Origin: a virus
Length of the DNA: 13,501 nt
UHGV virus genome: UHGV-1805255
Strand: one strand, 5' to 3'
In this document: in pieces, positions 10,311 through 13,501 of the stretch
Numbering within the stretch: position 1 is the stretch's first letter
Layout: each line of letters begins with the position of its first letter
Notes under the pieces: generated by a model
The model's input: the letters and a program-made list of their open reading frames with translations, nothing else
Database searches by the model: none
What the model was told of the DNA's origin: nothing
Made by a program: the position numbers and the translations under genes

Positions 10311-10498
10311 TAGTCCGGTTTCTTCCACCATCGCACCGGACAGGCGACTATGAGGGGACAACGCCGCGCTCCGTTAACGCGGTAAACCCCGGTGTGTATC
10401 GTTTTTGATTATCCCCGCACACTCGCGCAGAGGAGTCTCCCTGTCGGGCTGCGGTCTCTGTTAATGAGGGAATACAGCGACGATACGGCGCATGATGT
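10311..10498. repeat. Copy 1 of a ~190-bp imperfect direct repeat (cos-proximal copy)
   Basis: By-eye alignment with 12086-12285: ttcttccacc...cagg...atgagggaca...gcggtaaa...ccggtgtg.atcgtttttgattat..ccgcacactcgcgcagaggagt...gtcgggct.cggtc...gttaatg.gg.aatac.gcgacgat. Roughly 85-90% identity over the core. Confidence 0.8.
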
Positions 10499-10607: not shown

Positions 10608-11057
10608 CTATTTAATTAGTGATGCTGCGTATTCGATTAGATATAACTTAGGTGCCAACCAGATTTTTAACCATGTCATATTGGTTACTACAGCAATAAT
10701 AAAACTTACCCACAGAACAAAAACTGCTGCTAATGGTAAGATAAGAAAACTAATCTCACCGTTACTTTCCCAAATCATGGTCGGTTTGTATTTAGGCTTC
10801 CCTTTTTCCCATGACCATCCTTCATTATCGAACTTACCAATTTCAACTTTTTGGTACTGTTTCTTCATAAACCAAATAACCAGCGGGATTGTTGAAATGG
10901 CTATTAATGTTTTAATCAGGCTATCAACCATATTCCATACCAGCAACTGATGAACAACATCCGGAATCTGAGCCTGACTGAATGCAATGGCGGAATCAAT
11001 TCCATCGCTGGCCTTCTTCAATAAATCAACAAGAATTTTATTTGCTTCTTCTTGCAT
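10608..11057 (-). CDS. Cargo gene B: small (149 aa) predicted two-pass membrane protein, function unknown
   Basis: ATG at 11057 preceded by AGGA at about 7 nt; the track ORF begins upstream at a TTG. Two hydrophobic segments (SLIKTLIAISTIPLVIWFM and ISFLILPLAAVFVLWVSFIIAVVT) flank a Lys-rich loop. About 37% GC in a sampled stretch. No homolog recognised. Confidence 0.7.
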   Translation of the reverse strand: MQEEANKILVDLLKKASDGIDSAIAFSQAQIPDVVHQLLVWNMVDSLIKTLIAISTIPLVIWFMKKQYQKVEIGKFDNEGWSWEKGKPKYKPTMIWESNGEISFLILPLAAVFVLWVSFIIAVVTNMTWLKIWLAPKLYLIEYAASLIK

Positions 11058-11181
11058 GTTTATATCCTGTAAGTTGTAAGCCTGTTCGAGAAAAATAAAC
11101 AACTACGAGAGACAGAAAAAAATATCTCAGGCTCTCTTTCTATAAGCTTTTAGTTGAGGATGTTCTGCAAAACAAAACTGG

Positions 11182-12042
11182 TTAGTTATGTAACTGCTTC
11201 CGGAATACAACAGCCGACGAGCTACAACGTAAAATTCGTTTGATTGTGGCAGTTGAGGAAACAGACTTGCATTTCTCAACATCATCAATAATGACCACAT
11301 CCGGTACAGGAATGACGCGGGTATGCAATGTTTTTGCACTAATAACATCACAGCCATTCAGTGGTCGAATATCTGCATCTTCAGGCACTACCAGAAGCAC
11401 ACGTTTTTCCGGTGCAGAAAAGCCAGCAGCAAGAGTGCGTGACAATAAAGTCATTCCGCTGCGTGGCTTCATACAAATTTCAGAAATATGATTCTTTTCG
11501 TCCAAATGATGCTGGACATCATTTTTATCATCACTCAACAACTCTGCTGTTAATACAATCCCTGCTGTCTCAGATTTCCAGGAAATGCTGATATCCTGAT
11601 CATCTGCATCAACATCATATTTCATCGAGTAAGGACTAAAGCTACGTCCAACGAACGCATCATTTACCAGTACACGCCCACCCTGTCTGACCTGAAAGTC
11701 AACGCGCCCGGAAAGCTGATTTGCTGTTACAAGCAATGCCTTTTTTCTTTTTGTTTTATTGCTCATTGCCACCAACTGTTCAGCCATCTCTCTTGTCACA
11801 CTACCAGAAACTCTTCCTTGCATTTTCACAGAAAATTTTCTGGATGTAGTAGCATCGACATTAAAAAATCTGGATGTAATCAGGCAGTTATTAACAATTG
11901 GCATCAGCTCACTTACGATTGTAAAAAATTCCCGGTAAAGCTCATTTTGCTTTTCAACACACAGCTTTCCACAATCGTCCAGCTTACGCTCAAGAGCACT
12001 TAACCTTTCCATTATTGAATTAATTTTTTGCAACTCTTTCAT
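11182..12042 (-). CDS. Cargo gene A: 286-aa protein of unknown function, predicted soluble, N-terminal coiled-coil-like segment
   Basis: ATG at 12042 preceded by AGGAGG at 5 nt (MKELQKINSIMERLSALERKLDD...). The track ORF extends to a TTG at 12303 through the GC-rich repeat, with an R/C/S/P-rich translation that I do not consider coding. About 38% GC in sampled stretches. TAA stop at 11182. Confidence 0.75.
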   Translation of the reverse strand: MKELQKINSIMERLSALERKLDDCGKLCVEKQNELYREFFTIVSELMPIVNNCLITSRFFNVDATTSRKFSVKMQGRVSGSVTREMAEQLVAMSNKTKRKKALLVTANQLSGRVDFQVRQGGRVLVNDAFVGRSFSPYSMKYDVDADDQDISISWKSETAGIVLTAELLSDDKNDVQHHLDEKNHISEICMKPRSGMTLLSRTLAAGFSAPEKRVLLVVPEDADIRPLNGCDVISAKTLHTRVIPVPDVVIIDDVEKCKSVSSTATIKRILRCSSSAVVFRKQLHN

Positions 12043-12065: not shown

Positions 12066-12083
12066 GTGCGACCACGGTCGCAC
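12066..12083. promoter_or_regulatory. Palindrome gtgcgacc-ac-ggtcgcac (copy 1), candidate operator / protein-binding site upstream of cargo gene A
   Basis: Perfect 8-bp inverted arms around a 2-bp centre, 24-41 bp upstream of the gene A ATG and directly abutting repeat copy 2. Confidence 0.5.
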
Positions 12084-12085
12084 GC

Positions 12086-12285
12086 TCCTGAATACATGCC
12101 CTGTTTCTTCCACCCTCGCACAGGACTGGCGAGCATGAGGGACAAACCCGCGAATCATTAGTGCGGTAAAAACCCGGTGTGCATCGTTTTTGATTATTTC
12201 CGCACACTCGCGCAGAGGAGTTCCCCGTCGGGCTACGGTCATGGTTAATGCGGAAATACGGCGACGATGCAGCGCGGTATTTAAT
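12086..12285. repeat. Copy 2 of the ~190-bp imperfect direct repeat (upstream of the cargo cassette)
   Basis: Aligns with 10311-10498 (see copy 1). It is bracketed on both sides by the 16-18-bp palindrome. Confidence 0.8.
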
Positions 12286-12302
12286 GTGCGACCACGGTCG
12301 CA
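12286..12302. promoter_or_regulatory. Palindrome tgcgacc-ac-ggtcgca (copy 2)
   Basis: Same core as 12066-12083 with 7-bp perfect arms. Centre-to-centre spacing is 220 bp, about 21 helical turns. Confidence 0.5.
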
Positions 12303-12322: not shown

Positions 12323-12634
12323 TTATGCTACAGAGGAACAAGCTGGCGGGTAATTCAGCGTAGTGAATACCGGCATCTCCATCTTGTATGCGTAATGATA
12401 CTCAGCAGTTGCTCCAGCAGACGCTTTCCAGCCAGGAAGCATCAAAATAGCATCAGCACAACGAAGCATTGCAAAGCAAATATCCATGTATTCACGTTGT
12501 GTCAAACCATTAGGCAAAGTGGCTGGATTCAAGACAGAGTGACCATGTCGTGACAAACGATCTGCCTCTTTATTAAAGGCGTCACGATTAAAGTTCTCAT
12601 ATCCCGTCATTGGCCCGGCAATATAAATTTTCAT
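12323..12634 (-). CDS. DUF4406 / nucleoside 2-deoxyribosyltransferase-like small protein
   Basis: 103-aa ORF with ATG at 12634 (MKIYIAGPMTGYENFNRDAF...LMLPGWKASAGATAEYHYAYKMEMPVF). The N-terminal IYIAGPxTG and the LPGW-x-S-x-GA-x-x-E motifs fit my recollection of the DUF4406 family. Family assignment is from memory. Confidence 0.6.
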   Translation of the reverse strand: MKIYIAGPMTGYENFNRDAFNKEADRLSRHGHSVLNPATLPNGLTQREYMDICFAMLRCADAILMLPGWKASAGATAEYHYAYKMEMPVFTTLNYPPACSSVA

Positions 12635-12675
12635 TCACTATCCAACAAATTGAGCTCGTTTTTGATACAGAGGGA

Positions 12676-13113
12676 TTAATTCAGGCATTGCGTCTTGATG
12701 TATTCCTGCAAGTAGTTAACCTGCGCAGTTATCCTGTCGATCCCACTTCGGAGACGGTAATAATTGAGTTCAGCATCTGCTGTAAGTCTTGGGCTTTCTC
12801 CATCGCCCATGCTGCTGGCTCCGGTCGTTGACTTTGCACAGGTGGCGGCGACTTGCAGGCGCTTACGCCCAGCAGAAACATCAGCACGGAGGCTTTCGAT
12901 AGTCGCGTTAGCATCAGCAAGCTCCTTTGTATATCTGGCATCGAGTTCTGCTACGTCACGTTGACGCTTCTGCATATCAGCGATTGTGGATGTGGCTTTA
13001 TCGCGCTGCTCTTTGTAGGAGATGGCGTTATCACGGTAATGATTAACCGCCCATGACAGGCAGACGATGATGCAGATAACCAGAGCGGAGATAATCGCGG
13101 TTAACCGACTCAT
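12676..13113 (-). CDS. Rz: i-spanin Rz (inner-membrane spanin subunit)
   Basis: ORF 12676..13149 matches lambda-type Rz from the ATG at 13113 ([34 protein letters not shown]...). N-terminal TM segment, coiled-coil-rich periplasmic part, and an embedded Rz1 frame. Confidence 0.9.
12729..12914 (-). CDS. Rz1: o-spanin Rz1 (outer-membrane lipoprotein, embedded in Rz in +1 frame)
   Basis: Embedded ORF with ATG at 12914: [36 protein letters not shown]... Signal peptide with lipobox-like VSAC followed by a Pro-rich segment, as in lambda Rz1. An alternative upstream ATG at 12941 is possible. Confidence 0.75.
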
Positions 13114-13205
13114 GACATCAACACCCCAACGGCCAGAAACCACGGCCACGCATCGTTGCCATTAAATGCGAGCAACGCTGCCATGAAAAAGAAAATCATG
13201 CTCAT
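13110..13205 (-). CDS. Putative 31-aa hydrophobic micro-protein between R and Rz
   Basis: Hand translation gives [31 protein letters not shown]. Its ATG overlaps the R stop (ATGA) and its TGA overlaps the Rz ATG (ATGA). No RBS is evident, and it is below the size cutoff of the ORF track. Confidence 0.35.
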
Positions 13206-13501
13206 TGCTGCCCCCACAAACAGACTTCACGCTCAATCTCACGACGAGTCATCAGGCCTTTCCATTGCTTACCGCCAGCAGATATCCAGCGACGTAGCTG
13301 ATCACATGCGCCTTTGATATCGCCCTGGTTTATTTTGCGAAGAAGCGTCGATGTTCTGAAATTACCAGCGCCCACGTTGTAAACGAACGAGTAAAGAGCG
13401 CCGCGCGTTGTTTCCGGGGCACTGTTGCAAAGTTAGCGATGAGGCAGCCTTTTGTCTTATTCAAAGGCCTTACATTTCAAAAACTCTGCTTACCAGGCGC
13501 A
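13202..13501 (-). CDS. R: Phage-21-type (T4-lysozyme-like, GH24) endolysin R, C-terminal 99 codons; 5' end lies beyond the window
   Basis: Hand translation of the minus strand gives ...[71 protein letters not shown], matching the C-terminus of the phage 21 R / RrrD-type lysozyme as I recall it. TGA stop at 13202-13204. Not in the ORF track because it has no start in the window. Confidence 0.85.

Follow-up and report, generated by a model that had tools for sequence, protein, structure and literature searches.

Members of the NDT/DNPH1/MilB superfamily of N-glycosidases (NDT, nucleoside 2-deoxyribosyltransferase) have been described from several sources. DNPH1, known in the rat as Rcl, is a 2'-deoxynucleoside 5'-phosphate N-hydrolase; in the human enzyme the 5'-phosphate is bound by the Ser98 hydroxyl and the Gly100 NH, and nucleosides are not used as substrates (PMC10483697). 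MilB and BcmB are CMP and hydroxymethyl-CMP N-glycosidases, MilB being a 158-residue protein of nucleoside-antibiotic biosynthesis. DmtZ, from Z-genome actinophages, is a phage-encoded protein of the NDT superfamily that acts on a deoxynucleoside monophosphate (dNMP), as a dAMP hydrolase or deoxyribose-5-phosphate transferase (PMC12884076). On the phage side, N15 gp57 and PY54 ORF64 (110 and 108 residues) belong to the DUF4406 family and are encoded downstream of a holin-lysozyme-Rz cassette, near the right genome end (cos). Here we analyse a 13,501-nucleotide (nt) stretch of the UHGV virus genome UHGV-1805255 (the window), which carries a DUF4406 gene of 103 codons in a comparable position. 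We propose, with about equal weight for and against, that its product is a (deoxy)nucleoside 5'-monophosphate N-glycosidase or phosphoribosyl-transferase, which would act through a covalent Glu78 intermediate and, expressed late, would remodel or sanitise the nucleotide pool.

The window gene was confirmed, by profile and by fold, as an intact DUF4406 member of the NDT-like superfamily.

12323-12634, minus strand: DUF4406 gene, ortholog of N15 gp57, 103 residues; core domain, residues 1-91

Its ATG is at 12634 and its TAA at 12325-12323. The product, MKIYIAGPMTG...LPGWKASAGATAEYHYA in short form, reads in full MKIYIAGPMTGYENFNRDAFNKEADRLSRHGHSVLNPATLPNGLTQREYMDICFAMLRCADAILMLPGWKASAGATAEYHYAYKMEMPVFTTLNYPPACSSVA. 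An earlier note, made from the DNA letters, had called the gene as DUF4406 or NDT-like from two motifs, IYIAGPMTG and LPGW..S.GA..E; the open reading frame (ORF) is present at exactly these coordinates, both motifs are in the protein, and the placement was upheld by the profile search as well as by the fold. Pfam PF14359 (DUF4406) matched over profile positions 1-90 of 91 with an E-value of 3.7e-34 (117.4 bits against a cut-off of 22), which is far beyond chance. The PHROG match was phrog_355, 'nucleoside 2-deoxyribosyltransferase' (3e-45). DUF1937, NDT (PF05014) and Nuc_deoxyri_tr2 gave Pfam matches below threshold, PF05014 with 20.7 bits against a gathering threshold of 28.8, and a PDB search with the DUF4406 family profile returned marginal NDT matches only. 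The C-terminal 12 or so residues are unconserved and of low confidence. The call is thus correct and ordinary: public records already list the protein, which RefSeq names 'DUF4406 domain-containing protein', along with its family and its place in N15-like phages. With an identical protein in a sequenced phage and an ortholog in N15, the gene itself adds nothing new. What remains of value is the family, which is common in temperate and lytic phages and nearly all without known function. At 50% identity, an exhaustive profile search collected 19,511 clusters up to an E-value of 0.001, and 8,061 up to 1e-10.

The AlphaFold model of the window protein (pLDDT, the predicted local distance difference test, 94) has the flavodoxin-like alpha/beta fold with a parallel sheet that characterises the NDT-like superfamily. 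The fold-match scores were 12.3 for DUF1937 (PDB 1t1j), 11.0 for the CMP/hydroxymethyl-CMP hydrolase MilB, 9.4-11.0 for several NDT/PDTs and 8.6 for Rcl/DNPH1, while TIR and ThsB domains scored 8-9. Sequence identity of the window protein with MilB/BcmB and with 1t1j is about 20%, and DUF1937 is itself an uncharacterised family.

Active-site residues were compared through four independent alignments, with Leishmania PDT (LmPDT), T. brucei PDT (TbPDT), rat Rcl (in a sequence verified as identical to PDB 2khz) and phage DmtZ. In all four, Y4 aligns with the catalytic tyrosine of strand 1, E78 with the nucleophilic glutamate, which in the superfamily opens the helix following the third strand, and G74 with a conserved glycine. 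The counterpart of S72 is an aspartate in nucleoside transferases, Ser87 in rat Rcl (human Ser98) and Thr97 in DmtZ. Hence S72 and G74 correspond to rat S87 and G89, and to human S98 and G100, in the S-x-G-x-x-x-E motif of DNPH1, and the NDT aspartate that binds the free 5'-OH (the position of L. leichmannii Asp92) is replaced in DUF4406 by the invariant S72. DmtZ also has a small uncharged residue in place of this aspartate, and its authors draw the same 5'-phosphate argument from uncharged residues in the 5' pocket (PMC12884076). By alignment, two of the three superfamily catalytic residues are in place, together with the serine and glycine of the phosphate pocket.

Conservation was measured on the 150 best-scoring representatives of the 50%-identity clusters, and also on 47 closer homologs. 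Among the 150 representatives, G7, F20 and S72 are conserved in 100%, P37, Y49, G74 and E78 in 99%, and A75 in 97%. Position 4 is Tyr in 86% and Phe in 13%, D51 is conserved in 49%, and position 53, in the register of the canonical Asp/Asn, is Cys in 63% and Asp in 15%. The window protein contains all family-invariant residues: G7, F20, N36-P37-A38, P41, Y49, L66, W69 and S72-x-G74-A75-x-x-E78.

A natural fusion offers further information about the substrate. Mycobacteriophage Minerva gp164 (248 residues; locus L091, 1480-2226), found through tblastn, joins a DUF4406 domain (E 8e-22) to a nucleoside triphosphate (NTP) pyrophosphatase domain of MazG/PRA-PH type (22.9 bits against a cut-off of 21.3), and it retains the Y, GPM, NPA, Y49, LPGW and S-x-GA-x-x-E residues. 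DmtZ is likewise fused to or adjoining an NTP pyrophosphatase: in the DmtZ-DutZ fusion of Arthrobacter phage Wayne the pyrophosphatase yields dAMP, from which the NDT-like domain removes the base (PMC12884076). In that characterised fusion NTP thus becomes nucleoside monophosphate (NMP) and then free base, and the parallel with Minerva gp164 supports NMPs as the substrate class. The earlier note had left open whether the protein acts on nucleosides or on nucleotides; the conserved Ser where NDTs have an Asp, taken with the MazG fusion, favours nucleotides with a 5'-phosphate over nucleoside deoxyribosyltransfer. The public record of gp164 reads 'nucleotide pyrophosphohydrolase' only and overlooks its N-terminal DUF4406 domain. 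Many DUF4406 proteins are 190-358 residues long, with N- or C-terminal extensions, such as phage D6 orf89 (locus L003, 3986-4597). A scan of these long representatives for partner domains (P0121-P0265 included) found no Pfam domain besides DUF4406.

DmtZ differs from the window protein in other respects. It is not a DUF4406 protein (a weak match to PF05014 and none to PF14359), it has 161 residues with Asn77 as the third residue of the triad, and it is part of the PurZ0 2-aminoadenine pathway, which is absent here. We rejected a transfer of function from DmtZ or from the NDT of 2,6-diaminopurine phages, since DmtZ lies outside DUF4406 and that NDT belongs to PF05014.

The distribution of the gene bears on when it might act. 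Escherichia phage PhiR46_1 encodes an identical protein, N15 gp57 is 83% identical and PY54 ORF64 65%. The nearest relatives of the window are N15-like linear plasmid prophages with lambda-like head and tail genes. One of them, the E. coli plasmid pCAVP367-48 (locus L005, 1-47626), is linear and encodes protelomerase, RepA and SopAB. Of 5426 complete E. coli genomes, 38 carry the gene, some in chromosomal prophages and others on plasmids of about 46 kb, and the protein is 98-100% conserved across 37 E. coli genomes. From IMG/VR a context sample of 80 loci was fetched, of which 70 were parsed. The earlier note had suggested looking at prophage lysis-cos regions, and the gene does follow the lysis cassette in all 34 parsed loci with at least 75% identity. 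In the 36 loci at 57-68% identity it mostly has replication genes upstream (O/DnaB, or a helix-turn-helix initiator and a DnaC-like loader, plus DUF1627/DUF977) and DUF4752 or Ead/Ea22 genes downstream. Actinophage homologs sit among nucleotide-metabolism and replication genes.

In the window the gene directly follows the spanin genes.

12676-13149, minus strand: Rz spanin gene (Pfam Phage_lysis, 5.6e-37), the proximal edge of the slot
12729-12941, minus strand: Rz1, embedded in Rz (Pfam Rz1, 3.1e-20)
12635-12675, minus strand: 41-nt spacer from the Rz stop codon to the DUF4406 start codon, with a weak GGA Shine-Dalgarno-like element

A scan of the spacer found neither a promoter-like nor a terminator-like site, which suggests that the DUF4406 gene is co-transcribed with the lysis genes. 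In an N15-type phage the gene, having no promoter of its own, would be read with them on the late transcript. Such a late transcript, together with the position after replication genes in other lambdoid phages, points to a role in the nucleotide pool during lytic growth and not to lysogenic conversion.

From the family, fold, conservation, residue correspondences, synteny and fusion we infer the following catalysis. The gene would encode a minimal member of the NDT/DNPH1/MilB superfamily, with a core of about 90 residues. The substrate would be a (deoxy)nucleoside 5'-monophosphate, its phosphate resting on the G7-P8-M9-T10-G11 loop and on S72 and G74. With Y4 holding it, E78 would attack C1' and expel the base, giving a covalent (deoxy)ribosyl-5-phosphate-enzyme intermediate, which water (hydrolase) or a second base (phosphoribosyl transfer) would then resolve. 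This yields a testable prediction: a 5'-monophosphate and not a nucleoside as substrate, E78 as nucleophile, S72 as phosphate ligand and the canonical acid/base missing. If it is true, many phage annotations as 'nucleoside 2-deoxyribosyltransferase' need correcting, and DUF4406 is another phage tool for manipulating nucleotide pools. A wider proposal is improbable in our view: that the DUF4406 proteins form a very large class of phage-encoded nucleotide N-glycosidases whose active site is non-canonical (Glu/Tyr/Ser, no Asp, invariant Tyr49/Trp69), and that temperate phages use them, from accessory slots, to degrade one particular nucleotide, perhaps a modified one or a signalling precursor, thereby blunting nucleotide-based immunity or protecting the phage DNA pool.

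Several observations weigh against an N-glycosidase acting on nucleotides. The third superfamily catalytic residue, an Asp/Asn lying eight positions before the conserved Asp that precedes the next strand, could not be identified, C53 occupying its place; the chemistry may consequently be different, or the protein may bind a ligand without catalysis. The C-terminal segment by which the partner subunit of DNPH1 supplies a second phosphate-binding serine is missing from the window protein. P37 aligns with a proline that the DmtZ authors describe as typical of transferases (PMC12884076) and that DmtZ also has, so that hydrolase and transferase both stay in play. Taken singly, the pairwise profile alignments are weak (E 0.04-0.2), and they rely on the agreement of the folds. 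Searches with the window protein gave no match in NCBIfam and nothing by sequence in the PDB, and we found no functional study in the literature on DUF4406/PF14359 and N15 gp57, where just three papers name the family. Finally, an insertion sequence, IS26, interrupts the upstream endolysin gene, and expression of the late operon may be disturbed in this particular copy. D51 was considered as the catalytic Asp, as HMMER aligns it via a two-residue gap, and was rejected as a family feature in view of its conservation in about half of the representatives.

The comparison with DNPH1/Rcl has its own limits. Sequence similarity is insignificant (hhalign E 0.18), the canonical Asp of DNPH1 (rat D69, human D80) is without a clear counterpart in DUF4406, and the segment with the second-subunit Ser117/128 is absent; in the Rcl alignment nothing corresponds to the rat S117 segment, the window core ending at about residue 91. 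DNPH1, for its part, is without the invariant N-P-A-x-L-P loop, Y49 and W69 of DUF4406.

Other functions have to be weighed against this proposal. Many phage annotations state that such a protein is a true nucleoside 2-deoxyribosyltransferase, swapping bases between deoxynucleosides for salvage. We consider this improbable: these database labels come from homology transfer and not from experiment, the PF05014 score stays below its gathering threshold, the Asp that holds the 5'-OH is an invariant Ser as in the nucleotide hydrolase DNPH1, the C-terminal tail of NDTs and its Asn are missing from the 91-residue core, and the MazG fusion indicates NMP substrates. Somewhat less improbable, and still unlikely, is a counter-defence or pool-depleting factor that removes, or merely sequesters without catalysis, a nucleotide needed by host immunity, whether a precursor such as dAMP or a nucleotide-derived signal. 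The analogy with T5 Dmp, which acts against Kongming, is the sole basis for suggesting it. A search against PADLOC defence models gave no match at E <= 1, the near-invariant Glu/Ser/Gly motif and the MazG fusion resemble metabolism, and many members lie among the replication and nucleotide-metabolism genes of lytic actinophages.

A helper of phage DNA methyltransferases, cleaving S-adenosylhomocysteine or methylated nucleotides (m6dAMP, 5mdCMP) and so preventing inhibition of methylation or re-incorporation, has some support in gene neighbourhoods and is in our view quite improbable. In N15 the DUF4406 gene shares 20 nt with the beginning of a C5 cytosine methyltransferase gene (genes 57-58; locus L006, 4234-5542). 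The pair recurs in 7 IMG/VR loci and may be a functional couple. An adenine methyltransferase gene closely precedes the lysis cassette in PY54, N15, PhiR46_1 and pCAVP367-48, as in the majority of the IMG/VR loci with at least 75% identity. Modified nucleotides are also handled within the superfamily, DNPH1 sanitising a modified dNMP (PMC10483697) and MilB preferring hydroxymethyl-CMP. However, no C5 methyltransferase gene adjoins the DUF4406 gene in the window, the homologs placed after replication genes have no methyltransferase neighbour, and the adenine methyltransferase linkage may be mere synteny. Least probable of all is a decaying, non-functional remnant in a defective prophage. In favour of a remnant, IS26 truncates the endolysin gene about 780 nt upstream, and the element may no longer lyse cells. 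Against it, the ORF is full length relative to the profile, every family-invariant residue is intact, and the protein is identical to that of an isolated phage, PhiR46_1, and highly conserved across E. coli genomes.

The locus as a whole departs from N15 beyond the DUF4406 gene. In N15 a further small gene, 56, precedes gene 57, which the methyltransferase gene overlaps; the window instead carries a hairpin, the conserved lambdoid segment and another, AT-rich cargo of two genes. The remaining features of the region, from the upstream end along the late strand, are the following.

13417-13501, same direction as the late genes: IS26 end, making up the final 85 nt of the window; its terminal repeat spans 13430-13417, and tnp26 stops near 13470
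13202-13416, minus strand: endolysin gene remnant, the last ~71 codons, cut by IS26
12286-12302, no strand assigned: perfect 17-nt palindromic hairpin, GTGCGACCACGGTCGCA, starting 20 nt past the DUF4406 stop codon
12089-12275, no strand assigned: conserved lambdoid backbone segment, copy A, 187 nt, the distal edge of the bor/DUF4406 slot
12066-12082, no strand assigned: identical 17-nt palindrome, second copy, terminator-like on the minus (late) strand
11182-12042, minus strand: cargo ORF 1, 286 residues, AT-rich, no Pfam match
10608-11102, minus strand: cargo ORF 2, 149-164 residues depending on the start codon, AT-rich, no Pfam match
10315-10491, no strand assigned: second copy of the conserved segment, on the opposite side of the cargo cassette
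10060-9515, minus strand: Nu1, after the second segment copy and the cos-proximal region

The prophage or phage-plasmid copy in the window is probably lysis-defective, its endolysin gene being cut by IS26. Late transcription reaching Rz and DUF4406 must cross this IS26.

The conserved non-coding segment of about 180 nt identifies the slot. It was found in 3181 of 5426 complete E. coli genomes, and ordinary lambdoid prophages have it flanked by opposite-strand bor/iss on one side and by ylcI on the other; we rejected its identification as ylcI itself, which it merely abuts. The gene order in bor/iss prophages is Rz, opposite-strand bor/iss and then this segment, whereas the window has Rz, DUF4406 and the same segment. 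Gene-order comparison thus bears out that DUF4406 stands on the late strand where lambda has its oppositely oriented bor. The two occupants share the slot, between Rz and the conserved segment before cos, and little else: Bor and Iss are unrelated outer-membrane lipoproteins, encoded on the opposite strand with their own promoter and expressed in the lysogen. The earlier note had also described the gene as inserted accessory cargo. The accessory, bor-type slot stands, but a novel insertion does not, given that the gene is an ortholog of N15 gp57 and PY54 ORF64 and a regular resident in N15-like phages.

The two copies of the segment in the window are direct repeats flanking the cargo, each 85-86% identical to the iss-ylcI stretch of locus L007, and the cargo cassette is thus bounded by a duplicated conserved segment. 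The two cargo ORFs travel as a pair in most of the near-identical loci. In one relative from IMG/VR (L017), Rz and DUF4406 are followed by a hairpin, a single hybrid copy of the segment and Nu1, and the cargo genes are absent. Consequently, the DUF4406 gene is separable from the cassette, and the single hybrid segment is what would be expected if recombination between the repeats had added or removed the cassette. The GC content of the DUF4406 gene is 44.2% (38.5% at third codon positions), with 51-56% in neighbouring core genes and 36-41% in the two cargo genes. It is therefore intermediate between core and cassette, as had been noted, although the figure of about 47% given with that claim was too high.

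The two exact copies of the palindrome, 220 nt apart, bracket segment copy A, with a chance expectation of 0.04. Only the copy at 12066-12082 was flagged as terminator-like; the one at 12286-12302 may mark the 3' end of the gene module or insulate it. An Rfam scan of the intergenic region 3' of the DUF4406 gene found no RNA family, its fold z-score of -2.5 is unremarkable, and none of the ORFs that overlap the gene or the gap matches Pfam. In HK630 the homologous segment carries an annotated leftward promoter upstream of bor. Positions 12236-12262 of the window (plus strand) are the homolog of this promoter stretch (HK630 45281-45307). It would point antisense into the 3' end of DUF4406, with the 12286-12302 hairpin in between. 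Elsewhere, one N15-like plasmid prophage encodes a macro-domain protein between its tail-fibre gene and the assembly gene of that fibre (43567-44469 in locus L005).
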